Part shown: piece by piece, positions 28,947 through 46,677 of the stretch | How positions within the stretch are numbered: the stretch's first letter is position 1 | Layout of the letters: the number at the start of each line of letters is the position of its first letter | Origin: an uncultured Bacteroidaceae bacterium | GTDB lineage: Bacteria > Bacteroidota > Bacteroidia > Bacteroidales > JAADGE01 | Direction of reading: 5' to 3' | Length of the DNA: 64,000 bases | NCBI GenBank assembly: GCA_964472505.1 | Contig: CAYYQW010000001.1 | Coordinates: 30,701 to 94,700 of the forward strand | The notes under the pieces: model-generated | The model's database searches: none | Seen by the model: only the letters and a program-made list of their open reading frames with translations | Told to the model about the DNA's origin: nothing | Position numbers and translations under genes: made by a program

Positions 28947-29900
28947 ATGAAAGCATATTACGATTTTGCAAAAAAAATAACTTACGATATTGGTGCTGCT
29001 TTTTTCGGATCCAAAGAATTTCCTTACGATCCCCGAAGTGTAAAAGCCGATGCATATCCAATAAATTATGAATTTGCATTAGTCAATTCGGCTAAGTTTT
29101 ATCCGGATTTTGATAACGATGGAATTCCGGTTGCAAATTATCTTAACGCCGGTTTTCAATATAACCCAACCCGTATAGCTTCTTATGCATTAGCGCATTA
29201 TAGCAGGTATCAGTTTGATGATAAACCTGAAAGCAAGTCGGTTTTTTTGAATACAGCCAATTGGTTTTTAAATGAAAAAAATGCACGGTTTGAGTATAAA
29301 TATAATTATGACCAACTAAAAGCACCCTGGATTTCTTGTATGGCTCAGGGACAGGGTATAAGTGTTTTGGTGCGCGCATACAAACTCACGAACGATGAAA
29401 AATATTTAAAACAGGCAATTTTAGCTGCCCAGCCTTTTGGTATATCTGTAAAAAAAGGGGGGTTACGAAGCTTTCGCGAAGGATTAGGTTACTTTTTGGA
29501 GGAATTTCCGTTTCCCAACAGGCCTTGGACAGTCCTCAACGGGTTTTTGTATGCAATAATCGGCATCATTGAACTGCAAAACCATTATCCTGAAATTGAT
29601 AATGAAGTAGGTTTGCAGAAATTAATAACTTCGGCCGCTAAAGGGCATTTATGGACACATAAGGATTGGACATGCTACGATTTGCAGAATATTGGCACAA
29701 CCAAGCGCAACGCGGCAACAGTAAATTATCATCGCGTGCACATAGCACAGTATCAATATTTGGCAAATTTGTTTCCCAAACTGGGGTTTGACGTGTACGC
29801 TAATCTGTGGACAAAGCAATACAATTCGCTCATTAAACGGACAAATGCTTTAAAAAACAAAATAATTTTCAGAACAAAAAATCCGGCCAACAGATTTTAA
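28947..29900 (+). CDS. D-glucuronyl C5-epimerase family protein
   Basis: YNPTRIASYAL, APWISCMAQGQGISVLVRAY, FLEEFP, VLNGFLYAIIG, YDL...ATVNYHRVHI; no signal peptide seen. Confidence 0.85.
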   Translation: MKAYYDFAKKITYDIGAAFFGSKEFPYDPRSVKADAYPINYEFALVNSAKFYPDFDNDGIPVANYLNAGFQYNPTRIASYALAHYSRYQFDDKPESKSVFLNTANWFLNEKNARFEYKYNYDQLKAPWISCMAQGQGISVLVRAYKLTNDEKYLKQAILAAQPFGISVKKGGLRSFREGLGYFLEEFPFPNRPWTVLNGFLYAIIGIIELQNHYPEIDNEVGLQKLITSAAKGHLWTHKDWTCYDLQNIGTTKRNAATVNYHRVHIAQYQYLANLFPKLGFDVYANLWTKQYNSLIKRTNALKNKIIFRTKNPANRF

Positions 29901-30069
29901 TGATACGTTTTTTAGACCTGATATTTTCCTTGTTTGGTAGTATTCTATTATTGCCTCTGTTGCTAATTGTAGGCATAGCCATTCGCACAGAATCAACAGG
30001 TTCTGCCATTTTTCGTCAAAAAAGAATTGGCAAGGCAGGGGCGGAATTTAGTTTGTACAAATTCCGAAC
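29900..30069 (+). pseudogene. 5' fragment of a phosphoglycosyl (sugar) transferase
   Basis: MIRFLDLIFS...IFRQKRIGKAG..F.LYKFRT, then homology stops; catalytic DELPQL/GPRP region is absent. Confidence 0.8.
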
Positions 30070-30149
30070 TAAGCAGGTTAAAAAAGATGACAATAGACTC
30101 AGAACTCCAAAGTTAATTTTGTATATTCGGAATGTATTAAAACATAAAA

Positions 30150-31170: not shown

Positions 31171-31773
31171 CTATCTAAATGCAATTATCCGCCTCAAAGT
31201 CATAAAAATAATTTTCATGTCGTAAAGAACTGAAGGTTTACGTTTTGCATAGACTAAATTTTCCGTCAATTTATCAGGCATAATTTTTTCGATATAGGCC
31301 TTCTCCGGATCATCAAATTCCTCTAACAAACTACTTTCTTCAGCATACTTAATTGATGCTATATCAGTAATCCCCGGTTTTACTTTTAAAACATTGAGCT
31401 GCTCATTTGTATATAAATTCACGTATTTTCTCACTTCCGGGCGAGGCCCTACAATACTCATATCGCCCCGCAGAACATTAATAAGTTGCGGAAGTTCATC
31501 CAGCTTATATTTTCGCAGAATATATCCGGATTTCGTAATTCGGTTATCGCGCTCACCAACAGTCAATAAACCTTTTTTATCAGAATCCGGATACATTGTT
31601 CTGAATTTAAGCAATTTAAAATCTTTATTATTTTTTCCTACTCGGTTTTGACGATAAAAAACACCTCCTTTAGACTCAATTACAATCCAAAATGCAAGTA
31701 TTAAAAAAACCGGCAAAACAAGCAGTATTCCCAAAAAAGAAAACAATATATCAAAAGCGCGTTTAAATATCAT
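31171..31773 (-). CDS. Initiating phosphoglycosyl transferase, WcfS-like
   Basis: KRAFDI, KFRTM, KKGLLTVGERDNRIT, KLDELPQLINVLRGDMSIVGPRPEV. Confidence 0.9.
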   Translation of the reverse strand: MIFKRAFDILFSFLGILLVLPVFLILAFWIVIESKGGVFYRQNRVGKNNKDFKLLKFRTMYPDSDKKGLLTVGERDNRITKSGYILRKYKLDELPQLINVLRGDMSIVGPRPEVRKYVNLYTNEQLNVLKVKPGITDIASIKYAEESSLLEEFDDPEKAYIEKIMPDKLTENLVYAKRKPSVLYDMKIIFMTLRRIIAFR

Positions 31774-31785
31774 ATAAGAAAATCT

Positions 31786-33000
31786 TTACAGGTAAATATT
31801 GCAAGCTTTTAAAAGGACATCACAAACCTTGTTTAATTGATTATCTGACAAATCGAAAAATACGGGAAGTGAAATTTCAGAATTTGAATTGCTCAAGGCA
31901 ACAGGATAATCTTCTGCATTGTAGCCCATTGATTTGTAAAATGTAAAACCGGGCACCGGCAAAAAATGAACATTTACCGAAACTTTACGTTCAAAAACAG
32001 CTTGAATAATTTTATTTCTGGTTTCTTGATTGATGTTCTTTATACGAAGCGGGTAAAGGTGGAATGAACTTATTTTTGTCTCAGTTTTATAAACCGGGAT
32101 TTGAAAAATATCCGGAAATCGGGAAAAAAAGTTGGTGTATTTTTCAAAGATATAGTTACGCTTACTCAGTATTTCAGATTCATAGCGTTTAAGTTCCGCC
32201 AATCCGATTGAAGCTAATATATCTGTCATATTCGCTTTATACCCGGCTTCAAGTATATCGTATTGCCAATTTCCCACTTTCGTTTTAGCAAGTGCATCCT
32301 TACTTTGTCCATGCAATGAAAAGACATTCAAAAATTGATAAACTTCTTGATTATCAAATGGTTTAGGCAGATTAAGAGCCACTGCTCCTCCTTCGGCAGT
32401 GGTAAGGTTTTTTACGGCATGAAAAGAAAAGACGGCAATATCTGTTATATTCCCGGTCATTCTGCCCTTATATTTTGCTCCGATTGAATGGGCAGAGTCA
32501 GCCAAAATTAAAATACGTCCAAGCTTTTTTTGATTGTTTGTTTTGGGAACAAAAATGTCTTTTATTTTGGGCATTGTAACAAGCGTATTAATCTCATCGT
32601 AATCTACCGGCAATCCGGCAAAATCCACCGGCATAATAACCTTAGTTCGGGGCGAGATTTTTTTCCGAATTTCTGCAACATCTATATTAAAATCATGCTC
32701 GTTTACATCGGCAAATACCGGCTTAGCTCCACAATGTACTATAACATTGGCTGTTGCAGCGTAAGTATATGCCGGAATAATTACCTCATCACCCTCTCCT
32801 ACACCATACCATCTAAGAATGAGTTCAAGACCTGCCGTTGCTGAGTTTAAAGCAAGAATTTTGGGGCTTCCGCAAAACTCCTCCAATTTTTTTTCAAACA
32901 ATTTAGTTTTTGGACCGGTTGTAATCCAACCGGATTTTAGTGTATCGATTACTTCATCAATAGCTTCTTGACTTATTGCCGGGGGTGAAAAAGGTATCAT
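31786..33000 (-). CDS. DegT/DnrJ/EryC1/StrS aminotransferase, WcfR-like
   Basis: IPFSPP, SGWITTGP, DSAHS, SFHAVKNLTTAEGG, LNLPKPFDN, KLGRIL, KSMGY..DYP.A...SEISLP. Confidence 0.88.
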   Translation of the reverse strand: MIPFSPPAISQEAIDEVIDTLKSGWITTGPKTKLFEKKLEEFCGSPKILALNSATAGLELILRWYGVGEGDEVIIPAYTYAATANVIVHCGAKPVFADVNEHDFNIDVAEIRKKISPRTKVIMPVDFAGLPVDYDEINTLVTMPKIKDIFVPKTNNQKKLGRILILADSAHSIGAKYKGRMTGNITDIAVFSFHAVKNLTTAEGGAVALNLPKPFDNQEVYQFLNVFSLHGQSKDALAKTKVGNWQYDILEAGYKANMTDILASIGLAELKRYESEILSKRNYIFEKYTNFFSRFPDIFQIPVYKTETKISSFHLYPLRIKNINQETRNKIIQAVFERKVSVNVHFLPVPGFTFYKSMGYNAEDYPVALSNSNSEISLPVFFDLSDNQLNKVCDVLLKACNIYL

Positions 33001-33141: not shown

Positions 33142-33754
33142 TTAATATTCTCCTATACTTATTTCCATAATATAAAACACCGAATCCATCGATTGATAAT
33201 CAAACTCATACCCTGAATTATCATAAAATCTTATTGCAGCCTGATTAGATTTTTTTACCGATAGACCATAAATGTTTTCATCGTTTTTCGAAAGATATTT
33301 TTCAAATTCTCTAATCATTTCACTCCCAACACCTTTAGACTGGGTGTCACGATCAATAGCTATCGACAGCAGCCTCAAGGATGCCCGGGAAATCTGTCTT
33401 GATTTGAAAACCGCAATTAACTTTTGAACTGCCTTTTAAAAAAAATTGTGGATTCATAAACATTAATCTGAGCAAATAACCTGAGTTTTCCGAAATAAAT
33501 TCCCTCACAGCTTTATTTGTATTGTAACCCGCAATAATAAAGCCTGAGATTTTTCTTTGTGCATCAAGTGCAACAAAACAATACTCATTAGATAAAATTA
33601 ATATTTCATAAAAGCGTGCTAATTTTTCTTCCGAAAAACGTGATGTAAAATGATCAGGATGATAAGCCGATTTATATATTTTGCAAATATCTCCCAAATA
33701 CTTCACGTAGTTATTTTCAATCAATTATAACAGTTCTATACTTGACATATTCAT
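33142..33754 (-). pseudogene. GNAT N-acyltransferase, interrupted by an in-frame TAA and a 1-nt frameshift
   Basis: ATG at 33754/33748 in frame with TAA at 33727-25; frameshift at the T8A4 run (33434-33445); C-terminal RLLSIAID...KGVGSEM...N.AAIRFY...GY. Confidence 0.8.
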
Positions 33755-33887: not shown

Positions 33888-35153
33888 TTAACTCAACTGC
33901 CGGTTGCTCTTACCGGCTGTCCTTTCTATCAAATCAGCATATTCAGCATAAACAATTGCACTATCCAGACGTGCGCTAAAAACTTCTCGTACATTTTCAG
34001 AATACGCGTCTATAGCTTCCGGATGCTCATAAAAGAACCGGATTTCTTCAGCCAACTTTTCGATATCATCATAAATAAAGCTCTTCCCTAATTTATGCTT
34101 GTATATAAACTCATGAAATTCGCCTACTGTAGAAGACAAAACCGGTAATCCGCCGCTAAAATAACCGAAAGCCTTGTTAGGAAAAAACTCAAATTCTGAT
34201 TTTATGGGAATAACTCCGATATTTGAAAGTTGCAGAACGCGGGCAATATCCTTCTGTTCCAGCCAACCGGTAAAATGTATATTTGGTGCATTTCCTGCAA
34301 GTTGTCTTGAATAATCTTCATAGTTGCCTGTACCGGCCAACACAAAATGTATTTTAGTTCTTAAATCCGTATTCTCATTTATAAAGTGGGCTGCTTTAAT
34401 GAGCGGAGCCGGATTATGTATTTTTGTAAATGTACCCAGATACAAAACCACAAACTTATCTTTGGTTTGCTCTTCAATATTTGACAAAACGGGATTAGCT
34501 TCCTGTTTATCCGTCATTTTCAAGCTATTGCTGCCAATATAAAACACCGTATCGTCCGAAACAGCAGGACGTTTGACTTTATCCTGCGCCCATTTAAGCA
34601 TGGTTTGCATCATGCTTACAAGAACATCAGCATTTTTAAAAACAAAATTTGCTCGTCTGAAATCACGTATCAATACCATACGAGTTAATCTTTTCAAAAA
34701 TGTATTTTTGAAAGCATGAACAATAAAATCCGGCCAATAATCTCTGACATCCACAATTACCGGAATATTGTTTTTTTTACCAAAAAGCAAAGCATGATAA
34801 GCCAAATTATGCTCAGGCAAAGAATTCACTATAATATCCGGTTTTTCAGGCTCCTGTTCAGCTTTCTTTTTAAAATCAGCAGCTACAGTCAAATGGCAAA
34901 TAATACGACGTACAGAAATATTTCGTTTATAACTAATACTTTTCAAGTAACGAAGATTCAAGCCTGTATTAAGCTTTTCTTTTGCTTTGCCTTTATTGAT
35001 ATATGATTTTGACTGATGCTCGTATGCCGCAGTCCACCACGTTACATTGTGTCCGCGACTAAGAAGTTCTTTTGCTAAATAGCCCGTACGCATCATACGG
35101 TCGCCTTCATGGCGGGGAATAATTTCTCCTGTCTGTACAAGCCAAATATTCAT
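33888..35153 (-). CDS. GT4 glycosyltransferase
   Basis: VDVRDYWP, VLYLGT, FTGWL, PNKAFGYFSGGLPV. Confidence 0.88.
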   Translation of the reverse strand: MNIWLVQTGEIIPRHEGDRMMRTGYLAKELLSRGHNVTWWTAAYEHQSKSYINKGKAKEKLNTGLNLRYLKSISYKRNISVRRIICHLTVAADFKKKAEQEPEKPDIIVNSLPEHNLAYHALLFGKKNNIPVIVDVRDYWPDFIVHAFKNTFLKRLTRMVLIRDFRRANFVFKNADVLVSMMQTMLKWAQDKVKRPAVSDDTVFYIGSNSLKMTDKQEANPVLSNIEEQTKDKFVVLYLGTFTKIHNPAPLIKAAHFINENTDLRTKIHFVLAGTGNYEDYSRQLAGNAPNIHFTGWLEQKDIARVLQLSNIGVIPIKSEFEFFPNKAFGYFSGGLPVLSSTVGEFHEFIYKHKLGKSFIYDDIEKLAEEIRFFYEHPEAIDAYSENVREVFSARLDSAIVYAEYADLIERTAGKSNRQLS

Positions 35154-35179: not shown

Positions 35180-36280
35180 TCAATTAAAAAAATCGCAAAT
35201 TGCCTGTGCCGTATATTCAATCATTTCTTCAGTAAGTTCCGGGTACATGGGTAATGAAAGTATCTCATTTTGGAATTGAGCAGCATTAGGAACATCAGCT
35301 TTCGTATAGCCTAAATGCTCGTAGGCTTCCATAAGCGGCAAAGCCACCGGATAATGAACGGCCGTTGCAATGCCTTTTTCTTTCAGATACTTTTGCAATT
35401 CATCTCTGCGCTTTGTGCGTATGGCATAGATATGATAAATGTGCTTAACATCCGAGCGCACCGGCGGACAAATAATTTCATCGCAGGCTTTCAATTTTTC
35501 GTTATACAGCTCCGCATTTTTTGCTCGGCTGTTATTCCAGTCCAAGATATGCGGCAGTTTCTGTAATAAAACCGCAGCCTGTATGGTATCCATGCGGCTG
35601 TTGATGCCTTCTATTTTGTGAGCATGTTTTTTTAAAGCTCCGTGATTTACAAACATGCGAATTTTTTCGGCCAAAGTATCATCATTGGTTATTACGGCTC
35701 CGGCATCGCCGTAAGCTCCGAGATTTTTCCCCGGATAAAAACTAAAAGTAGCCGCATGCCCGAAAGTTCCGACATACTGTCCTTTATATTCTGCAAAATG
35801 CGCCTGGGCACAATCTTCGATCATATACAAATTATGCTTTTCACAAACGGCTTTAATTATTTCAATTTCAGCCGGTTGCCCGTACAGGTGAACCGGAATT
35901 ACGGCTTTGGTTCTGTCGGTAATTTTTTCTTCAATTTTTGAAGCATCCATATTGGAATACTCATCTATATCAACAAAAACGGGAACAGCACCGGTTTGGC
36001 CAATGGTTTCGGATGTGGAAATCCAAGAATTAGCCACGGTAATTACTTCATCGCCCGGTCCGATATTCATCATGCGTAATGCGGCATAAATGGCATCGGT
36101 GCCGTTGGCCAGTGCAATGCAATATTTTACGCCGTATTTTTCGGCATAGGCTTTTTCGAACTCTGCTACTTCCGGGCCTTTAATAAAAGCCGTACGATCA
36201 ATAACCGATTGAATAGCACTGTCTATTTCTTTTTTTAAAGAAAGGTATTGTGTGTGTAAATCTACAAAAGGGACTTTCAT
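35180..36280 (-). CDS. DegT-family aminotransferase, WbpE/WlbC-like
   Basis: VPFVDL, PVHLYGQ, EDCAQAH, SFYPGKNLGAYGDAG, NSRMD.IQAA; position in the wlbABC-like triad. Confidence 0.85.
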   Translation of the reverse strand: MKVPFVDLHTQYLSLKKEIDSAIQSVIDRTAFIKGPEVAEFEKAYAEKYGVKYCIALANGTDAIYAALRMMNIGPGDEVITVANSWISTSETIGQTGAVPVFVDIDEYSNMDASKIEEKITDRTKAVIPVHLYGQPAEIEIIKAVCEKHNLYMIEDCAQAHFAEYKGQYVGTFGHAATFSFYPGKNLGAYGDAGAVITNDDTLAEKIRMFVNHGALKKHAHKIEGINSRMDTIQAAVLLQKLPHILDWNNSRAKNAELYNEKLKACDEIICPPVRSDVKHIYHIYAIRTKRRDELQKYLKEKGIATAVHYPVALPLMEAYEHLGYTKADVPNAAQFQNEILSLPMYPELTEEMIEYTAQAICDFFN

Positions 36281-36292
36281 GGATGTATATTT

Positions 36293-36751
36293 TTATTTAA
36301 TCTTTTTAGCGGGATTACCTACATAAACACCGGCTTCCGTAATATCTTTAGTTACCACCGAACCTGCACCTACCACCACATTATCGCAAATATTAACCGG
36401 CAGTATGGTTGCATTGGTACCGAGAGAAACATTATTCCCGATTTTTGTGGATTTCCACAAAGATTGGTCGCCGCCGGCCGGTCCGCCTTTTTCAAACAAA
36501 TCGTTGATAAACATAACTCCGTGCGAGATGAAGCAGTTATCACCAATTTCAACCAATTCACATATAAAGGCGTGAGACTGAACTTTAGTGTTATCTCCAA
36601 TTTTTACACCTTTTTGAATTTCAGTAAACGGCCCGATAAAACAATTGTCACCGGTGGTAATTTCATAAACATTTACCGGCTCAACAATTTTCACATTCTT
36701 CCCGAATGAGTTATCGCGTATTTGGCTTTGGTATATTTGGGCTTTGTTCAT
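36293..36751 (-). CDS. Hexapeptide-repeat N-acetyltransferase, WbpD/WlbB-like
   Basis: IGDN hexapeptides, GTNATIL, VGAGSVVTKD...GNPAK. Confidence 0.85.
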   Translation of the reverse strand: MNKAQIYQSQIRDNSFGKNVKIVEPVNVYEITTGDNCFIGPFTEIQKGVKIGDNTKVQSHAFICELVEIGDNCFISHGVMFINDLFEKGGPAGGDQSLWKSTKIGNNVSLGTNATILPVNICDNVVVGAGSVVTKDITEAGVYVGNPAKKIK

Positions 36752-36757
36752 GCTGTA

Positions 36758-37822
36758 TTATTTTATTCCCAACTTACATTTTTGGGGATGAAAACGTAAT
36801 TCTACTTCTTTTCCGGTTTCCACCGATTCGTAAATGGCAGAAATAAGCTCCAGGCTTTTCCGTCCTTCAAAACCGCCGATTAAGCTTTTGGTATTAGTTC
36901 TGACGGCATGAACGATATCTTCGTAATAAGCCTTATGCCCAAAACCATAGACATTTGGGGGGTTTTCATAATATTCGTTTTTCACGGTTCCATCTTCGGC
37001 AATCGGCTCGGTAAAATTCCAATGCCGAATTTCATTCACGGCAAAACCGCCAATTTCCACACTTCCCTTCTCGCCCAAGACGGATACCGAACCTTCCAAA
37101 TCTTTGGGACGCGTGGCCGTAGTGGCCTCAATGATTCCCAAAGCGCCGTTTTCAAATTTCAAAACTACGGCTGCCGTATCTTCGGCTTCAATATCTACCA
37201 ATGCGGTGGTGCTTTTGGCAAAGACGCTTTCAACCGGCCCCATGAGCCACTGCAACAAATCTACGTGGTGGCTTGCCTGATTGGCCAATACACCGCCGTC
37301 GGTCGCCCATTTTCCGCGCCACGAAGCTTGGTCATAATAATTTTGATCGCGCGACCAACGTACGCGCACGGTTCCCATAACCAATTTCCCGAAGCGCCCA
37401 TCATCCAAAGCTTCTCTCAATTTAACCACGGGCAAATTAAAGCGATTTTGTTTTACCACAAAAAGTTTACAATTATTTTCGGCACAAGCCTGAATCATAT
37501 TGTCGGCATCGCGCAAAGTCAAAGCCATGGGCTTTTCTACAATAATATGTTTTTTGTACTGTGACAAATGTATCACATGCTCGGCATGGTTTCCGCTTTC
37601 GGTGAGAACGCTTACAATATCGATGTCTTCGTTTTGCATCATTTCGTCCATATCAGTATAATACGGCAAATTGAAACGTTCTCCGAGGGCTTTGGCTTTT
37701 TCTTCAATAATATCGCAAACGGCAACGAGTTCCGAATCGGTAATTTGTCCTCCGCCCAAAAGTTCAGAGTGTTTTTTTGAAATTCTTCCGCAGCCTACTA
37801 AGGCAAATTTTAACTTATTCAT
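36758..37822 (-). CDS. Gfo/Idh/MocA oxidoreductase, WbpB/WlbA-like sugar 3-dehydrogenase
   Basis: GCGRI, VEKPMA, VVKQNRFN, DGGVLANQASHHVDLL. Confidence 0.88.
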   Translation of the reverse strand: MNKLKFALVGCGRISKKHSELLGGGQITDSELVAVCDIIEEKAKALGERFNLPYYTDMDEMMQNEDIDIVSVLTESGNHAEHVIHLSQYKKHIIVEKPMALTLRDADNMIQACAENNCKLFVVKQNRFNLPVVKLREALDDGRFGKLVMGTVRVRWSRDQNYYDQASWRGKWATDGGVLANQASHHVDLLQWLMGPVESVFAKSTTALVDIEAEDTAAVVLKFENGALGIIEATTATRPKDLEGSVSVLGEKGSVEIGGFAVNEIRHWNFTEPIAEDGTVKNEYYENPPNVYGFGHKAYYEDIVHAVRTNTKSLIGGFEGRKSLELISAIYESVETGKEVELRFHPQKCKLGIK

Positions 37823-37894: not shown

Positions 37895-38971
37895 TTATAT
37901 ATCTCTTCCATAATCTTTTATAATTTCTCGGATAATCAGCTCTGATGAATTGCCCTGTCCATATAATTTTTTATCAAATATGATTTTATTCTTTTTAATA
38001 TCTTCATAGGCAAGCATAATTTTCTCTCTGTCGGCGCCAACTAAAATATTGTACTTACTGTCAACAAGCTCAGTCCATTCGGTTTCATCGCGCATTGTAA
38101 CACATGGCTTTTCAAAAAAGAAAGCTTCTTTTTGCATTCCTCCGCTGTCCGTAAATACAGCATCAGAATTTTTTAGTAAAAATAGTATTTGCAAATAACC
38201 AACCGGTTCGATAACTGTAATATTTCCGATTGGTATTTTCTTGTTTTCAATGATTTTTTTTGTGCGAGGATGTAGCGGAAGAATGACGCTTTTATCCTTT
38301 GCTATTCGATTAAGGGCGTCAAATATTTGTTCTAACCTGTCCTCACTATCTGTATTCTCTGCACGATGAACTGTGGCAAGAATATAGTTCTGCGGCATAT
38401 CAATATTCGGCTTTTTAGCCATCTGTCCGTAATACAAAGCAGAATCGAACATTACATCACCCACATTCAAATATTTAGTTTTAAAAGTTGCAAAACCCTC
38501 CTTACGCAAGTTCTCGACTGCGGTATCCGTCGGACAAAATAAAATATCACTTATCCTGTCAGTTAATATTCGGTTTATTTCTTCCGGCATATTCATATTG
38601 TACGACCTTAAACCGGCTTCTATATGCAGCAATTTTATATTCATTTTTTTTGCAGCTAAAGCTCCGGCTAAAGTAGAATTTGTATCACCATAAACAATAA
38701 CATAATCCGGTTTTTCATCCATCAATATTTTTTCAGTTTTCTCAAGTATCTTGCCTGTCATAGCCCCGTGAGAAAGATTATTGACATTCAAATTGTATTT
38801 GGGCTTAGGAATTTTCATTTCATCAAAGAAAACTTCACTCATATTCTGATCAAAGTGCTGCCCTGTATGAATGATGGTCTCAGAAATATTTTCATACTTA
38901 ATAAGTTCTCTGCTTATTGCTGCAGCTTTAACAAACTGCGGTCTGGCTCCTATTATTGTGATTATTTTCAT
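37895..38971 (-). CDS. wecB: UDP-GlcNAc 2-epimerase, non-hydrolysing (WecB/WbpI-like)
   Basis: GARPQFVK, HTGQHFD, YGDTNST, HIEAGLRS, MPEEINR, TDSGGMQKEA, RDETEW. Confidence 0.92.
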   Translation of the reverse strand: MKIITIIGARPQFVKAAAISRELIKYENISETIIHTGQHFDQNMSEVFFDEMKIPKPKYNLNVNNLSHGAMTGKILEKTEKILMDEKPDYVIVYGDTNSTLAGALAAKKMNIKLLHIEAGLRSYNMNMPEEINRILTDRISDILFCPTDTAVENLRKEGFATFKTKYLNVGDVMFDSALYYGQMAKKPNIDMPQNYILATVHRAENTDSEDRLEQIFDALNRIAKDKSVILPLHPRTKKIIENKKIPIGNITVIEPVGYLQILFLLKNSDAVFTDSGGMQKEAFFFEKPCVTMRDETEWTELVDSKYNILVGADREKIMLAYEDIKKNKIIFDKKLYGQGNSSELIIREIIKDYGRDI

Positions 38972-40119
38972 TCTAAAACTTTTTTATAAACATTTAAAAA
39001 CCGAGTTTCTTCATTTTCCCAATTATACTTTTGCTGTACTGCCTCCTTTCCGTTTCGCCCCATTTCATAGCATAATTCAGGATCTCCTGCTAAATTGTTT
39101 ATTACTTTTCCAATTTCCGAGGCAGAAGACGGATCAACACAAATACCGCATTTGTTGTTCTCAATGATTTGTTTCCACAAAGGAAAATTGGAAGCAATTA
39201 CAGGTATTCCGGCAGCCATATACTCGAATAGCTTGTTAGGCTGCGCATTAATGTGGTTTGGTTCAGGCATAAAAGTAACACAACCGGCAATTGATTTATT
39301 TAACTCAATATTCATTTGCTCTCGATTCATATAGCCAAGATACTTAACCTTTTCCCACCCTGCAAGTTTTTTACATTTTTCATACAAAGCATCATCTTCA
39401 AAATTGCCGCCTAAAACCAGCTGAACATTAGTATTATCTAGCGATTCGATCAAGGACAGTATCCCGCGTATGCGTGATATAGCACCAACATAAATAATTT
39501 GCTTCTCTTTTTCGGCCGATGATGATTTATCCGAAACAAATTCACTTCGAAACGGATAATTATTTATGCTCTCAGCTGCCGAATTTATTTTTAAAAAACG
39601 TTGTTTGATAAAATCCGTTGCAGTTACAATAAAATCCAATTTTTTAACTTTATTATCCTCGTAATATTCAGTAAGAAAAGCCAGTAATGATCTTAAATAT
39701 TTTGGGATATAATGCTTACTCTTTAGCTGTCTGGGAAGATCTTCGTGGGCATCATAAATTACTTTTTTCCCTTTCTTTTTAAGTTTAACAGCAATGCGCA
39801 ATAATTCCGGATCGTGAATATGGTACACCTCGGCATCCAGAGATAAAGCCTTTTTATATACTTTATTTACGGAATATATCATGCGCTTTATTCTGTTTTT
39901 TTCACGTCCGACATCCAAAATAGTAATATTATCAGCTACTTCATCTCCAAGCGAATCCGCTACGATAAGGTAAACATCAAACCCGGCTGCAAGTAAGCTT
40001 TTACACTCCTTTTGAAAAATTCGGGTGTCATAGCGATTATGAACGGATGTAAGATGTACTGCTTTCATGGTTTCTAAATTATTTGACAGAATGATATTAA
40101 GAATACGATTGGTTCGCAT
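38968..40119 (-). CDS. GT4 glycosyltransferase
   Basis: HLTSVH...DTRIF.KE, HIHDPEL, YDAHED, PNKLFEYMAAGIPVIASNF. Confidence 0.9.
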   Translation of the reverse strand: MRTNRILNIILSNNLETMKAVHLTSVHNRYDTRIFQKECKSLLAAGFDVYLIVADSLGDEVADNITILDVGREKNRIKRMIYSVNKVYKKALSLDAEVYHIHDPELLRIAVKLKKKGKKVIYDAHEDLPRQLKSKHYIPKYLRSLLAFLTEYYEDNKVKKLDFIVTATDFIKQRFLKINSAAESINNYPFRSEFVSDKSSSAEKEKQIIYVGAISRIRGILSLIESLDNTNVQLVLGGNFEDDALYEKCKKLAGWEKVKYLGYMNREQMNIELNKSIAGCVTFMPEPNHINAQPNKLFEYMAAGIPVIASNFPLWKQIIENNKCGICVDPSSASEIGKVINNLAGDPELCYEMGRNGKEAVQQKYNWENEETRFLNVYKKVLE

Positions 40120-41401
40120 TGTATGTATTTTGTAAAAATATATATGAAAATATTATTAACAAAAATACCCCGTGTGTTAAAAGACTGGTAAATAAGGCGC
40201 TACTGAGAAAAGTAAACATCGTTATTATAAATACCCCGTTGTACTCAGGACTGATTTTAAAAGAATCAATAAGCTTTATTATTCCTGCCACAATAACTGA
40301 AAAGAACACCGGCCCTATATGCCCCAGGTGCATAAAGCCGTCGGAGATAAAGCCGTTGTTGGCACTCACCTGGGGTTTCCCCCAATATATCGAAGCAATA
40401 AGGTTCGAAGGTTGTAAAGAATAGGAATAGTCCACATAATCACTTAAAAAACTATTACCGAAAAACACCGGCTTGCCGGCAAAAAAGTCAAAATATGACT
40501 CATTTAAAATTGCAGGAATGAAGAATACACGCCGCACAAAAGTACCTTCAATATTCAGGTATTCGTAATACTCAGTTGTAAAACGGCTTGCAATAATTAC
40601 AAAAATAATACCGCTGAAAATTGTCGCAACCTGTGCTCCCGGTTTTTTAATTATATAGAGCATTACAGCCACTATGGGGGCAAATAAAATAACTTTATGC
40701 GACATGGTCACAAATAAATACAACAAAAAAAACAGGGCGCCCCAATAAGCAATTTTTCTGTTTTTTTTAAACCCAAACAACAGCAGGGCGGGTAATATTA
40801 TCTTCACTAACCAGCTCATGGTATAACGGATATAGCTTCCGGCTAAATCTTTAGCTTCAGCTCGCTGTATATAAACATTCCGGTCAAGAGAAAAAACAGA
40901 AAAATTTACATCCCAACGATATGTCATGAAATACGGAATAAGCATAAGCAAACTTATACCGAAAAGCAATAAAGCTTGGTTTTTGGCTGTTATTTTCAAG
41001 CTATAAGCCTGTCTTAATCGTATTTGACCGACAATAATCAAGAGTAAAATAAAAAAGCTGATATGCAGAATAATGCTAAAGTTAAAGTCCATAAACTGAT
41101 ACAAAATCAAATTCGGAATCAGCATCATCACGATAAAAAACATGGCCGTAAAATAGGTAAAGGGAGTTTTTATTCGGTTAGCCAAAAAGGAAAGAAATAG
41201 GAATATCAATTTCGCAAGAATATACTTCCTCAAATCAAAGTCATAAAAAAATATATGATAGACATCGCTGACAAATACTTTATAGGAGTATTCCAGCAGA
41301 AAGTAAATTGTCAGTATCAATACAAAATTGATGATACGGAAATTGAATCTTTCCAAGAATTTATTTAGCTTTTGAATCATATTTGTAAAAACAAGTGGCA
41401 A
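40097..41401 (-). CDS. Wzy-like O-antigen/capsule polymerase
   Basis: Polytopic membrane protein with about 11 TM and large loops, located between the flippase and a GT. Confidence 0.6.
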   Translation of the reverse strand: MPLVFTNMIQKLNKFLERFNFRIINFVLILTIYFLLEYSYKVFVSDVYHIFFYDFDLRKYILAKLIFLFLSFLANRIKTPFTYFTAMFFIVMMLIPNLILYQFMDFNFSIILHISFFILLLIIVGQIRLRQAYSLKITAKNQALLLFGISLLMLIPYFMTYRWDVNFSVFSLDRNVYIQRAEAKDLAGSYIRYTMSWLVKIILPALLLFGFKKNRKIAYWGALFFLLYLFVTMSHKVILFAPIVAVMLYIIKKPGAQVATIFSGIIFVIIASRFTTEYYEYLNIEGTFVRRVFFIPAILNESYFDFFAGKPVFFGNSFLSDYVDYSYSLQPSNLIASIYWGKPQVSANNGFISDGFMHLGHIGPVFFSVIVAGIIKLIDSFKISPEYNGVFIITMFTFLSSALFTSLLTHGVFLLIIFSYIFLQNTYNANQSYS

Positions 41402-41499: not shown

Positions 41500-42870
41500 T
41501 TACAGCTCAAGAAAACGAAGAAATCCAAATCGGATTAAAAAAAGAATAATTGTAGCAAACGCTAAACGTAAAAGCGTGTATCTAAGCACATACCACACAT
41601 CTACTTTCACTATATTGAGCAAATACACAGCTACCCCGCCCCACATCAAAGCACCCGCCACTCCGAAAAGCAAAACAGCAGTTTGTTCGTCTTCGAACCA
41701 AAGGCCGCCAACAAGAAGAGCCGATAGGCGTAATCCAAAAAGCAGTCCGTAAAAAACCATTGACTCGGCTTGCCGCTCAAGAACACTGAAAAGCATGGCC
41801 AAAGGCGATGCTATGAAAACAAATAATATTGCCGGGCTCAGAAATTGCGTAAAACGTCCGGCAGTCTGCCATTCAGCTCCGAAAACAAAGGGGAAAATAT
41901 AATCGGCAAAAGCCATTAGTATCATCATGGGAACAAAACCTATGAGAAACATCTTTTTATACAGTTCAAGCGTAATATGCCTGAGTTTTTCGGGATTATC
42001 TTTTTGCGCGGCGGCATTACGAAAAAAGACCTGTCCCACGGCGTGTCCCAAAACCATAGCCGGTACGCTGAGAACGCGCATCGACAAGGAATAATAGCCC
42101 ACAATGGCTTCGGCAAAGAAAACGGAAAGCATAAATACGGGAATCTGCAACGAAAGAATATTAAGAAAAGCCGAACCGGTTGAAAACATGGGAAAACGCT
42201 TGTAACGAACTGCGTTCAAGCACATTCTCGAAAAAGAAAAACGTTTTATAAAATGAAAATCCTGCCGGAAAACTTTTGTAATGAAAATTGACACCATAAG
42301 TAACCACCCGAGCAAATACCCGAACACCAGACCTCCGGCTCCTTTAGCAAAAGCTATCCAAGACAAATTAATGCCTCCGACTGTAATGCCGCGCGCCACA
42401 TTAGCACGAGCAATTCCGCCGTACTGTTTTTTTCGGTTAAACCAATAATTTAATGCTTTGTAAGAGCCAACAATAGTAATTCCGGGCGGTACGGCATAAA
42501 TCCAGTATTTGAGCCGTTCGCTGCCTAAAATTTTCACAACCCAATCTCCAAAAAAGTAAGCCGCAACAAAAAATAAAGTGCCCACCGAAACTGCTGTCAG
42601 CAAAGATAAAACCAAAACATGAAAGGCATCTTTCCTATGTTTCGGGAGCATTACTGCCAAATCATATTGGCCGGTTGCCAAAACGGCAAAAACATTTACA
42701 AGCGATGTATAAAGGGCATACAAGCCAAAATCTTCCGGACTGTAGAAACGCGACAAAATGGGCGATATAAGCACCGGTATGGCTTGCGCAATAACGGTTC
42801 CGGTCATTAGCTTTGACACGTTTTTTACAAATTCGGATTTGACGTACTTTTGAATCAGCTTCTGTATCAT
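41500..42870 (-). CDS. Wzx oligosaccharide flippase
   Basis: GTVIAQAI...PILSRFYSPEDFG, VG.YSL..RVL..P...LG.AVGQVF, AEWQTAG. Confidence 0.88.
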   Translation of the reverse strand: MIQKLIQKYVKSEFVKNVSKLMTGTVIAQAIPVLISPILSRFYSPEDFGLYALYTSLVNVFAVLATGQYDLAVMLPKHRKDAFHVLVLSLLTAVSVGTLFFVAAYFFGDWVVKILGSERLKYWIYAVPPGITIVGSYKALNYWFNRKKQYGGIARANVARGITVGGINLSWIAFAKGAGGLVFGYLLGWLLMVSIFITKVFRQDFHFIKRFSFSRMCLNAVRYKRFPMFSTGSAFLNILSLQIPVFMLSVFFAEAIVGYYSLSMRVLSVPAMVLGHAVGQVFFRNAAAQKDNPEKLRHITLELYKKMFLIGFVPMMILMAFADYIFPFVFGAEWQTAGRFTQFLSPAILFVFIASPLAMLFSVLERQAESMVFYGLLFGLRLSALLVGGLWFEDEQTAVLLFGVAGALMWGGVAVYLLNIVKVDVWYVLRYTLLRLAFATIILFLIRFGFLRFLEL

Positions 42871-42970: not shown

Positions 42971-44326
42971 CTAATCCCGGCAAGAACAAACAATATCAAT
43001 TATTTTTTCATAGTATAATGCATATTCATCCCACAAGGGAGAATTGATATTATTGTTATGCCACAACAATACAAAATTTCCGCCGTACTTTTGAATTTTT
43101 TTGTAAAGTCGCTTTATTTCCGGGAGTGCGCTTTTGGGATTTGGGTATTGTTCTCGCAGCGCTACATCCATAACTATTAAAGGGCGTTCACGCAAAGCTA
43201 ATTGGCGGCGCTCTATAATGTCAAAAAGCGGAAACTCTCGAGCTGTTCCCGCTCTGAAACCAAGTCTGTGCCTAAACCCCAAAGTACTGTCTGTCTGTAA
43301 AGCTTTTTTATCCCAAATACGCCATGTAACCGGATTGTGAAAACGCAAGAAATGTTGTCTTCCCTCACTGACCGGCTTTCGAGTGTAAGCATTAATACGT
43401 GCCAACTCCAAAGCAAATTGTTTTTCATTTTTATGAGAACTGTAAGAGCCGTGTATCCCTATAATGTGATCTTGCGCTTCAAGTTCCTTAATAAGCGTTT
43501 TAGTTTTCGAGCTGCTTATTGAATATTTTACATCTTTTTCGCCCGGCTCGCCGGCTATAAAGTAAAAATGTGATTTCATACCGTACTTTTCCGAAACATC
43601 GGCCAGATAATCGTAGGTATCATAAGGGTCTGCGGCTTTTCCGCCAAGCAAAGCCGTGTATTCCCCCACAGTTTTAAAAAGCTGATTAAAACTACGGCGT
43701 TTCAAAAGATCGCCCCCGGCCTTCTTTATAAAACTAAAAAAACCGGAATATTTATATAAAAAATCAACATCATGCGTAATAACAGCTTGGTAAGTGTTTT
43801 CATTAATATTTTCAATTCCGGCGGATTGTAATAGTTTTTTTAAAAACATAAAATATTCATCGGCCACCGGGCGATTACTAATGCTGTTTTTTACTGCAAA
43901 CAGCATGTTTTCCGGAGTTCGTCCGTGAATATCTTTCTCCTCGATCACATACTCTTCCCAGCGGCTCAGCATAAAAAAAGCAGAAGCAAAAATATCGAGG
44001 CCACATTCAATTATATTGTTACGCTCTGAAAAATAATTATTTCCGAAGATTATGGGCAATCGGTTCTCGAAAGTATAAGGATTGGGATCCAAAAACTTTA
44101 GTGTTTGAGGCAAAGCATTTTTCTGCAAATACGATTGTTCGCTTTTAATATTACCAAAGAAGGCATCGTGAAAAATTATTTTTCTCCCGCTTTCAAAATG
44201 TATCTCATAATTATCAACGGCTGCTTGCTGAAAAGTATAGTCAAGCCCTGCAAATTCGGAAAAAAGAATATCAGCGGCATATTTCTTTTCTTCATAAAAT
44301 CCGACGGGCACAAGCAGTTTAATCAT
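42971..44326 (-). CDS. Polysaccharide deacetylase family protein with N-terminal extension
   Basis: FFMLSRWEE, ITHDVD, IGIHGSY, GRQHFLRF, DSTLGF, PLIVMD, LLWHN. Confidence 0.8.
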   Translation of the reverse strand: MIKLLVPVGFYEEKKYAADILFSEFAGLDYTFQQAAVDNYEIHFESGRKIIFHDAFFGNIKSEQSYLQKNALPQTLKFLDPNPYTFENRLPIIFGNNYFSERNNIIECGLDIFASAFFMLSRWEEYVIEEKDIHGRTPENMLFAVKNSISNRPVADEYFMFLKKLLQSAGIENINENTYQAVITHDVDFLYKYSGFFSFIKKAGGDLLKRRSFNQLFKTVGEYTALLGGKAADPYDTYDYLADVSEKYGMKSHFYFIAGEPGEKDVKYSISSSKTKTLIKELEAQDHIIGIHGSYSSHKNEKQFALELARINAYTRKPVSEGRQHFLRFHNPVTWRIWDKKALQTDSTLGFRHRLGFRAGTAREFPLFDIIERRQLALRERPLIVMDVALREQYPNPKSALPEIKRLYKKIQKYGGNFVLLWHNNNINSPLWDEYALYYEKIIDIVCSCRD

Positions 44327-45258
44327 TAAATCTGTTTATTAGACTTAGAGGCTTCCACAAAACGTTTGTATTCCATAATATTATCAAAACGTTCTATGGT
44401 TTTATGAGCCGCTTTAAGCGAAGGCGGCGATACAAATATACCATTATAAATAACGATGCCTTTGTTTTCTTCGGCTGCCTCTTTGGACAGTCGAACAATT
44501 TCTCTTGCTTTTTCCACTTTATCTTCGTCGGGCGTATAGCCGGCATTGGCAATGGGTAACTCGCGCGGAGACATGATCAACATGCCTTCAAAACCCATAA
44601 CATTGGCTTGTCGAATATGCTTTTTCAATCCTTCAAAATCGCCTACCTTAACATACGGCGTATCAATGGCCAACAAATCGTGCGCTTTGGCTGTCATGGA
44701 AACAATGTGACGCGGCACGGCAATTCCCTGCGCATCTTCACCGTGTTGGCCTTCTTGCTCTGCCAGAAAGTCTTCGCTTCCGAAAAGCAATCCGATGATA
44801 CGATCCGAAGCCGTGGCTATTTCATTTAAGCGCACAATACTTTCGGGTGTTTCAATTAAAGCTATTATGTCAAAATAACCTTGGGGCAGGCCCAAAAGTT
44901 TTTCTTTAAGCGAAAGCTGCGCATCAAAAGCAATCATATCACGTGCAGTGCGAGCCATAGGATATACAAATCCGTTGAGATTGGGGCTTACTACTGCATC
45001 CGTATCTAATAAAGTCATACCGCTTTCCAAAGGGTTGATTCTTACATAGACCGGACGGTCATCGGGAAGTTCATGAGAAAGAAAATCTCTGAGTGTTTCG
45101 CGGGCTTCCTCTTTTTTATCATCCGGAACGGCATCTTCCAAATCAAAGACAATCGCATCAGCCTCGGTTTGAAATGATTTATTAATATATTTTTTATTAT
45201 GTCCTGCCGTAAAGAGGAGTGAACGGTGAACAAGTTTTCCGGTAAATTTTGTTTTCAT
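44326..45258 (-). CDS. CitE-like acyl-CoA lyase (HpcH/HpaI aldolase/citrate lyase family)
   Basis: RSLLF, DLEDAV, VRIN, LIETP, GSEDF, AIDTPY; TAATG overlap with the deacetylase. Confidence 0.88.
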   Translation of the reverse strand: MKTKFTGKLVHRSLLFTAGHNKKYINKSFQTEADAIVFDLEDAVPDDKKEEARETLRDFLSHELPDDRPVYVRINPLESGMTLLDTDAVVSPNLNGFVYPMARTARDMIAFDAQLSLKEKLLGLPQGYFDIIALIETPESIVRLNEIATASDRIIGLLFGSEDFLAEQEGQHGEDAQGIAVPRHIVSMTAKAHDLLAIDTPYVKVGDFEGLKKHIRQANVMGFEGMLIMSPRELPIANAGYTPDEDKVEKAREIVRLSKEAAEENKGIVIYNGIFVSPPSLKAAHKTIERFDNIMEYKRFVEASKSNKQI

Positions 45259-45415
45259 CTGCTTATTTTTAATTTTTTGAATTAGCCATTTTATTAATAT
45301 TCACATTATCTTGATTCACAGGCTTTACAAAAGCTATAATTTGCAAAAAATGTTTCTTCGATTAAGAATGCCGGCTACAAAATATGATTTTTTCTCGCAT
45401 TTATATTCTATCAAT

Positions 45416-45462
45416 CCCCCTGCCCTTCCGAAATAATCGGAACAGGCACTTCTCCAAGGGGG
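45416..45462. repeat. Nested GC-rich palindrome (REP-like)
   Basis: CCCCCT/AGGGGG outer stem, GCC/GGC, inner TTCCGA-AATAA-TCGGAA. Confidence 0.6.
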
Positions 45463-45572
45463 AATGCGTAAAATGCCGGTGTGCTGTAATTTTAAAATTT
45501 GTCGTACTCATACGCCTAATTCAATTAATTTTTTTCAAATATAAAAACTTATTCCAAAATCATGGCCTAACG

Positions 45573-45592
45573 AATCAGGCCAAAATAATATT
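45573..45592 (-). terminator. Possible maoC terminator
   Basis: TGGCCT/AGGCCA stem 17 nt past the stop. Confidence 0.4.
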
Positions 45593-45609
45593 TCTATGAA
45601 CTTGATGAA

Positions 45610-46068
45610 TCATTTTAAAGGCACAAGCACTTTCCGAGAAAAGGACAATATCTTTTCATTGTTTTGGTTAAAAGCTGTGGTTTTCACCTGCACAATGCCT
45701 CGGTCAGGTTTGGATTTGGACTGCCTTTTGTCCAGTACTTCAGTTTCGGCTGTTAGAGTATCTCCGATGAATACGGGCCCAAGATGTTTAACATCATCAT
45801 AACCCAAATTTGCCACGGCTTTTCCGCTGACATCAGCCACTGAAATTCCTACTGTCACTGAAAAAACCAAAGTACCCACTACCAATATTTTTCCGTGCTG
45901 TGCATCTTGTGCGTACTTATGATTCAAATGCACCGGATGATGATTCATGGTCAGTAAGGAAAATAAATTGTTGTCTGATTCCGTTATAGTTTTGCTTAAG
46001 CTGTGACGGTAAATATCACCGATTTCAAATTCCTGAAAATATCGGCCGAATGGAAATGCTAAGTTCAT
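45610..46068 (-). CDS. MaoC-family dehydratase/hydratase
   Basis: GRYFQEFEIG, TITESDN, TMNHHPVHLN, NLGYDDV..LGPVFIGDTL; ATG at 46068 preferred. Confidence 0.9.
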   Translation of the reverse strand: MNLAFPFGRYFQEFEIGDIYRHSLSKTITESDNNLFSLLTMNHHPVHLNHKYAQDAQHGKILVVGTLVFSVTVGISVADVSGKAVANLGYDDVKHLGPVFIGDTLTAETEVLDKRQSKSKPDRGIVQVKTTAFNQNNEKILSFSRKVLVPLK

Positions 46069-46335
46069 AAAAAGTAAATTTTTAGAAAAGCCAAAGTAAG
46101 ATAAAAAACAAATATCTGCAAAATCCAGCATTATGAAAATTAAAAACCGTATATTGACCTTTGGATGTTATGTGGATTTTACCTGTCGGATTATTTGGAG
46201 TACTTTAAAAACAGACAGTTATTAAATATTAACTTATTCATATATAAATAAGGTGTAAAATAGGACAAAATGCATTTTTTTAAAAATCTTTATAAAAAAA
46301 ACAGCTAACTCTTTTATTAATAAAAAGAAAAGATA

Positions 46336-46343
46336 TATATTTG
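46336..46343 (+). promoter_or_regulatory. -7 promoter element for hup
   Basis: TATATTTG matches TAnnTTTG. Confidence 0.6.
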
Positions 46344-46392
46344 CCACCCGCAAACAGAAAAACTATTTATTTAAAATATAAACATTTTAAAA

Positions 46393-46677
46393 ATGACTAA
46401 AGCAGATCTTGTAAACGAAATTTCAAAAAAGACAGGTATTGAAAAAGTATCGGTTCAAAAAACTATTGAATCTTTTATGGACAGCGTAAAAGAATCATTG
46501 GTAAGCAATGAGAATGTATATTTAAGAGGTTTTGGCAGTTTTGTTACAAAAAAACGAGCAGAAAAAACAGCCAGAAACATTTCAAAAAATACAACCATTA
46601 TTATACCGGAGCATTACATTCCTTCTTTCAAACCCTCAAAAAGCTTTGTAAACAAAGTGAAAGAAAACGTAAAGTAA
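46393..46677 (+). CDS. hup: DNA-binding protein HU
   Basis: MTKADLV, VYLRGFGSF, RNISKN...PSFKP. Confidence 0.93.
   Translation: MTKADLVNEISKKTGIEKVSVQKTIESFMDSVKESLVSNENVYLRGFGSFVTKKRAEKTARNISKNTTIIIPEHYIPSFKPSKSFVNKVKENVK

Follow-up and report, generated by a model that had tools for sequence, protein, structure and literature searches.

A MaoC hydratase paired with an Asp-less CitE-family protein in a Bacteroidales glycan locus: a probable module for dicarboxylic acyl-CoA supply

Genes at the head of the glycan locus

We analysed a window of 64,000 nucleotides from an uncultured Bacteroidaceae bacterium (assembly GCA_964472505.1, contig CAYYQW010000001.1, positions 30,701 to 94,700), which carries a Wzx/Wzy-type glycan locus on its minus strand. 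At the head of the locus lie genes for a MaoC-family hydratase (maoC), an HpcH/CitE-family protein (citE) and a VimE-like de-N-acetylase (vimE), followed in order by wzx, a wzy-like gene, a GT4 gene, wbpI, wbpB, wbpD, wbpE, a second GT4 gene, a GNAT gene, degT and pgt (Table 1). An HU-like gene lies upstream in divergent orientation. This report concerns the MaoC-CitE pair, in which CitE has lost the catalytic aspartate of its superfamily and whose homologs recur in glycan loci together with N-acyltransferase genes.

A preliminary description of this DNA, made from the sequence, had placed citE first in the polysaccharide operon, with its stop codon overlapping the deacetylase start in a TAATG and with maoC about 350 bp upstream on the same strand. 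The overlap is present, and the gap measures 351 bp, 256 of which are accounted for by a 248-bp miniature inverted-repeat transposable element (MITE) and its 8-bp target duplication (45269-45276 and 45525-45532). The element ends in 9-bp terminal inverted repeats (TTGAATTAG). Its family is non-coding and mostly 208-248 bp long, with an AT-rich 8-bp target duplication and a GC-rich inner hairpin, and 34 copies in the genome have perfect target duplications; no autonomous element sharing these ends was found. Contigs from the probable source sample stack about tenfold at 45109-45575 (depth ~669 vs 51), and a contig of a related strain from another sample represents the empty site, connecting 45268 to 45525. 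Without the MITE the spacer is only 95 bp, and it is 93 bp in a 94%-identical relative. Thus, maoC, not citE, is the first gene of the locus and belongs with citE. Promoter and terminator scans gave results at chance level, a hairpin at 45563-45582 included, and an Rfam search of 45200-46420 found no match. A longer maoC reading frame starting at 46131 was rejected, since homologs start near 46068.

Table 1. Coordinates of features in the window; the last row lists CitE paralogs in other loci
Feature	Position	Strand	Basis
maoC, 152-aa hot-dog hydratase, head of locus	45610-46068	-	PF01575, PF19315
MITE between maoC and citE	45277-45524		genomic copies with target duplications
citE, 310-aa HpcH/CitE-family open reading frame	44326-45258	-	PF03328, E 2e-34
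TAATG stop/start overlap of citE and deacetylase gene; place of the AAC(3)-family gene in relatives	44324-44328	-	
451-aa DUF7033/VimE-like CE4 de-N-acetylase	42971-44326	-	PF23019
Wzx flippase	41500-42870	-	PF13440, PF01943
Putative Wzy-like membrane protein	40097-41401	-	hydrophobic sequence and position only; no Pfam or NCBIfam match
GT4 glycosyltransferase	38968-40119	-	PF00534
WbpI-like non-hydrolysing UDP-GlcNAc-type 2-epimerase	37895-38971	-	TIGR00236 above cut-off
WbpB-like Gfo/Idh/MocA 3-dehydrogenase	36758-37822	-	PF01408, PF02894
WbpD/FdtC-like 152-aa hexapeptide N-acyltransferase	36293-36751	-	PF00132, PDB matches
WbpE-like DegT aminotransferase	35180-36280	-	PF01041
Second GT4 glycosyltransferase	33888-35153	-	PF00534
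Frameshifted GNAT acetyltransferase	33142-33724	-	two frames; C-terminal half matches PF00583
Second DegT aminotransferase	31786-33000	-	PF01041
Phosphoglycosyl transferase (pgt), end of locus	31171-31773	-	PF02397
Short CitE paralogs	L127:10683-11540, L128:7783-8604, L130:10198-11010, L132:10852-11679, L134:8258-9091		

CitE belongs to a clade without the lid aspartate

The AlphaFold2 model of CitE (pLDDT 95.7) shows a TIM barrel with a C-terminal lid, with a template modelling (TM) score of 0.88 to human CLYBL (5VXC) and of ~0.75-0.88 across CLYBL, Mcl and Rv2498c. In the alignment, the Mg ligands E136 and D163, the water-binding residues E41 and D42 and the catalytic R73 are kept. Ser277 aligns with D320 of human CLYBL and D299 of R. 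sphaeroides Mcl; the catalytic lid aspartate of malyl- and citramalyl-CoA lyases is missing from this protein. That residue has been described as conserved throughout the superfamily, with the exception of one thioesterase group that has Glu, and as transferring a proton to or from the acetyl carbon (PMC3832036). The corresponding CLYBL mutant, D320A, was termed catalytically null (preprint 10.1101/2024.09.25.614871).

In the CitEs linked to glycan loci this lid position is occupied by Ser, Gly or Ala, and these proteins form a single clade (support 0.99), within which no member with Asp was found. At 50% identity, no fewer than 66 clusters lack the Asp, and the phyla represented are Bacteroidota, Desulfobacterota and Cloacimonadota. 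No member of the clade appeared among the best matches listed for plasmids and phages, and E. coli genomes gave no DNA-level match. Because the catalytic lid aspartate is lacking, the view of CitE as an ordinary central-metabolism lyase is not supported. CitE does not qualify as a true citrate lyase beta subunit either, scoring 155 bits against TIGR01588 (cut-off 443) and having glycan genes instead of citCDEF as neighbours; against the RipC/Ccl model it scores 126 bits (cut-off 375).

Loss of the lid aspartate, the behaviour of CLYBL D320A and changes at the Lys226 and His230 positions, which are common in Asp-type enzymes and altered in much of the Asp-less sample, would all fit a pseudo-enzyme, a partner that binds or channels a reactive acyl-CoA and keeps it protected, with MaoC alone doing the chemistry. 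We consider this improbable, given that E41/D42, R73, E136 and D163 are 96-100% conserved in the clade, that His20 (96-98% vs 9%) and His172 have become clade-typical, and that most loci contain no second, potentially active CitE. In the present genome CitE is under constraint: comparison with the homolog P0003 gave a dN of 0.076 and a dS of 0.83 (dN/dS ~0.09), and of the 20 changes that separate it from P0002, where aac(3) is likewise absent from the vicinity, none fell in the 73 conserved columns (p 0.005).

In some loci maoC is accompanied by another CitE paralog, shorter than the first and mostly with Glu as its lid residue. Since CitE lids close the active site of the neighbouring subunit, such a paralog may form mixed oligomers with the Asp-less copy and complement it by donating a base in trans. 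An ordinary Asp-type CitE is encoded elsewhere in the genome, at C42:1963-2784 (frame ~419 aa), and most genomes of the family have a similar copy.

MaoC is of the Asn type and the deacetylase retains CE4 residues

MaoC scored 75 bits against PF01575 (cut-off 27) and contains the motif TMNHHPVH, which is of the Asn type found in itaconyl- and mesaconyl-CoA hydratases. These hydratases also gave its highest scores, the closest PDB match was a beta-methylmalyl-CoA dehydratase, and the score against the RipB_Ich model was 150 bits (cut-off 340). The Asn-x4-His motif is invariant across 27 MaoC homologs; as we read them, the motif and these scores point to a dicarboxylic substrate. PhaJ-type (R)-3-hydroxybutyryl-CoA hydratases have an Asp-x4-His dyad, which is not present in this MaoC.

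These observations bear on the suggestion that MaoC makes (R)-3-hydroxybutyryl-CoA, with which the GNAT re-acylates the deacetylated sugar. 3-Hydroxybutyryl is a common acyl group of glycans. One example has been described (PMC3210612), and a GNAT gene is indeed present in the locus. We nevertheless regard this scheme as very unlikely: it leaves CitE without a role, though the pair is never split, and the GNAT gene is broken here and rare elsewhere, as described below. Moreover, MaoC has Asn at the Asp position of crotonyl-CoA hydratases, Asp at this place in the motif being presumably the mark of that type. Malyl and citramalyl, the other acyl groups named in the preliminary description, stand as candidates.

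The deacetylase scored 148 bits against NF053580 (cut-off 440). It has the DUF7033 domain and CE4-type residues, and H185, D186, D188, H287, H292 and H423 are conserved in the alignment.

The pair is linked to glycan loci and N-acyltransferase genes

Among 401 genomes of the order, sampled without regard to gene context, 25 (~6%) contain a member of the Asp-less clade. The 23 readable loci of this sample all have maoC no more than one gene from citE; 21 have a transferase gene (18 hexapeptide, 3 AAC(3)) and 20 have glycan genes of our reference set, the remaining three having an FdtA-like pair. Across all 45 Asp-less loci, MaoC is present in every one, a transferase of the AAC(3) family or the NeuD/PglD hexapeptide type in 42, and at least one glycan gene in 40, with FdtA-like pairs in three more. 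A VimE-like gene occurs in 13 of the 45 loci, with AAC(3) in 13/13. For control loci, those of ordinary Asp-type CitEs with at least 7 kb of context, the corresponding counts were 0/28 for a glycan gene or transferase and 4/28 for MaoC. Of the neighbourhood proposed in the preliminary description, the glycan linkage proved tight and MaoC constant; the deacetylase is a partner in part of the loci, and the GNAT is not a conserved partner. The amino-sugar pathways at these loci differ and include those for diamino-uronates, FdtA/DegT-type sugars and pseudaminic acid. Cultured carriers include Carboxylicivirga sp. A043, Desulfocicer niacini and a Roseivirga sp.

The survey also speaks to the possibility that the two enzymes serve catabolism or metabolite repair, hydrating and then cleaving itaconyl-, mesaconyl- or malyl-CoA, and either hitch-hike in glycan loci or clean up after them. 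The nearest curated models of the pair are RipB/Ich and RipC/Ccl, malyl-CoA has been described as a metabolite requiring repair (10.1101/2024.09.25.614871), and one locus, L004, lies outside glycan loci. Against this, the transferase is found in 42/45 loci vs 0/28 controls, no recurrent CoA-transferase was recognised among the neighbours, and cleavage requires a proton donor that CitE lacks (PMC3832036). A catabolic role is therefore highly improbable.

Several individual loci deserve mention. In L199 (5000-11700), the place expected for PseH, flanked by a cytidylyltransferase gene and a PseG-like/NeuB pair, is taken by maoC, citE and a hexapeptide transferase gene; from this arrangement we predict a nonulosonic acid that carries an unusual N-acyl group. 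L129 (14453-19390) and L131 (1-6700) place the genes near large glycosyltransferase-like genes and an open reading frame whose start appears to resemble flagellin, and may be protein glycosylation loci. In L215 (8767-10412), citE is followed by open reading frames that we take to resemble PanB and a beta-keto-acid cleavage enzyme, which may add further steps to the acyl chemistry. In L143 (7081-8118), the run wzx-maoC-citE-aac(3) is closely preceded by genes for an opine-dehydrogenase-like enzyme and a B12-binding protein. Thermophagus xiamenensis has a lone maoC-citE-aac(3) after fabH (L037:9524-11886), with a VimE-like gene on another contig.

The transferase gene has probably been lost from this genome

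Most close relatives have the gene order maoC-citE-aac(3)-vimE, adjoining wzx. In P0003, whose CitE is 89% identical, citE is followed directly by the AAC(3) gene, with a start overlap of 8 bp. The cassette is incomplete in the present genome, in which the AAC(3)-family member was not found by Pfam, a custom hidden Markov model or tblastn (assembly completeness 98%). A direct citE-vimE junction is shared by this genome, a second strain and the 94%-identical relative. Since aac(3) follows citE in relatives and is missing here, the citE/vimE overlap is derived; as judged from gene order, the TAATG is most likely a deletion scar left by the lost transferase gene and not the ancestral coupling of lyase and deacetylase for which it was first taken. 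Within the family, MaoC together with an Asp-less CitE was found only in this genome and G008, and this type of AAC(3) only in G008. A VimA/FemAB-type transferase gene is absent from the wbp genes. The sole PF13480 match, a FemAB-like gene on contig C25, was rejected as a partner because its neighbours did not resemble glycan genes.

The GNAT gene is split by one extra base in an 8-nt homopolymer (33438-33445), and both halves weakly match the intact GNATs of loci L143 and L145. A plain assembly slip was rejected as the cause, as contigs from three runs, though possibly of the source sample, align without a gap. The homopolymer might be a phase-variable switch. Intact GNAT homologs occur in 2 of the 45 Asp-less loci, adjacent to AAC(3) in both. 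Being rare and always next to AAC(3), the GNAT is, on this distribution, an accessory and not the conserved re-acylating partner that had been proposed.

The absence of AAC(3), the GNAT frameshift and the MITE between maoC and citE raise the question of whether the pair, functional in relatives, is a relic here, idle beside a deacetylase that leaves a free amine. This would be compatible with our interpretation of the family as a whole. However, maoC and citE are both intact, and the order without aac(3) is also found in the second strain and the 94% relative, with conserved columns unchanged; a relic, like recent orphaning of the pair in this genome, is a minor possibility. Our tentative first choice for the user of the product here is instead the 152-aa hexapeptide enzyme, acting on N-3. 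The locus has no wbpA of its own, and a second wbpA-wbpB-wbpD-wbpE set is located ~90 kb away (C1:164183-168229), which would free the hexapeptide enzyme for another N-3 acyl group. N-3 is the malylated position in P. rubra (PMC3210612). A comparable wbp triad stands alongside AAC(3) in locus L141, which tempers this assignment. It is doubtful that the user is the GNAT once back in frame, equally doubtful that it is an unassembled aac(3), and still less likely that it is something else.

The HU-adjacent slot of a same-genus genome contains another glycan locus, with a VimE-like gene and lacking maoC and citE. On the strand opposite to the present locus (28947-30100), a gene with a D-glucuronyl C5-epimerase C-terminal domain (PF06662) is followed by a short sugar-transferase fragment.

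A proposed route to dicarboxylic N-acyl groups

Considered together, MaoC and the Asp-less CitE probably constitute a portable module that supplies a C4 or C5 dicarboxylic acyl-CoA, to be used by the enzyme that N-acylates amino sugars in a surface-glycan locus. The glycan linkage thus upholds the core of the earlier idea, a dedicated supply of a non-acetyl acyl-CoA in a deacetylate-then-reacylate scheme, with a different acyltransferase in place of the GNAT. In the first step, CitE would use its Mg2+/Arg73 site to bind a 2-oxo or 2-hydroxy acid and would condense acetyl-CoA with glyoxylate or pyruvate to give (S)-malyl- or (S)-citramalyl-CoA, with His20, or Glu from the second paralog where present, as the base. 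The thioester would be spared from hydrolysis because the lid aspartate is lost. MaoC would then equilibrate malyl- or citramalyl-CoA with fumaryl- or mesaconyl-CoA, and the transferase would draw off the acyl-CoA from this equilibrium. The acceptor would depend on the locus: for an AAC(3)-family enzyme it would be an amine of a 2,3-diamino-uronate that the VimE-like deacetylase has exposed, and for a NeuD/PglD-type enzyme an amine made by DegT. No activating enzyme or CoA-transferase was recognised as recurrent among the locus neighbours and both enzymes are always kept, so that the substrates are probably central metabolites. Propionyl-CoA is a less likely donor, since Glu162 occupies a position at which malyl-CoA lyases have Ala.

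If the module is read in this way, malyl is the acyl group we would name first, tentatively and by analogy, as the sole candidate with a match among solved glycans. Citramalyl, mesaconyl or itaconyl comes next as a possible identity, and some other dicarboxylic group is a weaker possibility. Plain L-malyl would need just one of the two enzymes, which leaves room for an epimerase route to D-malyl or for an enoyl product. It is rather unlikely, but conceivable, that the Asp-less CitE has a chemistry new to the superfamily. As an aldol-type epimerase, having no residue for enolate protonation, it could cleave and re-form the C-C bond, converting (S)-malyl-CoA from MaoC to (R)-malyl-CoA, which would account for the unexplained source of D-malyl glycans. 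Alternatively, the pair could run itaconate degradation in reverse and decorate the cell surface with electrophilic amides of the mesaconyl, itaconyl or fumaryl type; we know of no glycan with such a decoration.

Several points weigh against the supply module. Loss of the lid aspartate speaks against an ordinary condensation in the first step, and the base proposed in its place is conjectural. No enzyme or glycan has been characterised from any organism that bears the pair, and the present genome appears to lack AAC(3). The glycan reference set was derived from the test loci and thus favours them over the controls, and linkage confined to one clade is one evolutionary event, the kin not being independent. 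Two Asp-less loci (L037 and L004) are not glycan loci. Finally, loci L157-L159 have an AAC(3) of this subfamily together with VimE and no maoC or citE within 10 kb, so these transferases may accept other donors.

Comparison with known systems

Dedicated acyl supply and deacetylation followed by re-acylation are already known in kind. In the anthrose pathway of Bacillus anthracis, AntA and AntD likewise represent a glycan-locus CoA-ester hydratase feeding a hexapeptide N-acyltransferase; the hydratase there has a crotonase fold instead of the MaoC fold, CitE is absent, and the product is 3-hydroxy-3-methylbutyryl. The Wbp/Vim pathway of Porphyromonas and Tannerella shares with the present locus the WbpB/D/E/I-like genes and a VimE-like CE4 deacetylase, and an exchange of acetyl for another acyl group has been proposed for VimE/VimA (PMC7468200). 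The relatives' partner here is of the AAC(3) family rather than VimA, the locus is of the Wzx/Wzy type, and a dicarboxylic acyl-CoA would take the place of Ser or Gly as donor.

A MaoC-type hydratase and a CitE-like enzyme with an Mg/Arg site also make up the Ich/Ccl itaconate pair (Yersinia RipB/RipC), and M. tuberculosis Rv2498c is similar in this respect. The present proteins differ from that pair in lacking the lid aspartate and in falling short of the equivalog cut-offs (150/340 and 126/375 bits). They are encoded beside glycan genes and N-acyltransferases and not CoA-transferases, none of which is linked in the window, and their direction is probably biosynthetic. Malyl-CoA lyases of R. 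sphaeroides and C. aurantiacus and human CLYBL share the fold, the lid domain and the Arg and Mg ligands with CitE at 24-25% identity. In the clade, their D299, D318 or D320 is replaced by Ser, Gly or Ala, and His20 and His172 are newly conserved.

Our literature search, in which most subscription journals were not covered, found no paper on a MaoC-CitE pair in a glycan locus and neither the Asp-less clade nor the AAC(3) partner; a paper on the Tenacibaculum maritimum O-antigen mentions no MaoC or lyase. The labels "citrate lyase beta" and "aminoglycoside acetyltransferase" on genes of this kind are probably wrong. At the level of the glycan, malyl occurs in the O-polysaccharides of P. rubra ATCC 29570, V. 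vulnificus and S. algae BrY, as a 4-malyl amide that in Pseudoalteromonas rubra and Vibrio vulnificus is carried by 2,3-diaminoglucuronate; both configurations are known (PMC3210612). This is the sugar class predicted for the present locus, a resemblance by analogy at the glycan level only. Bacterial polysaccharides are known to bear malyl and further dicarboxylic N-acyl groups, to which we found no genes assigned; the MaoC-CitE pair provides a widespread candidate that can be recognised by its sequence.

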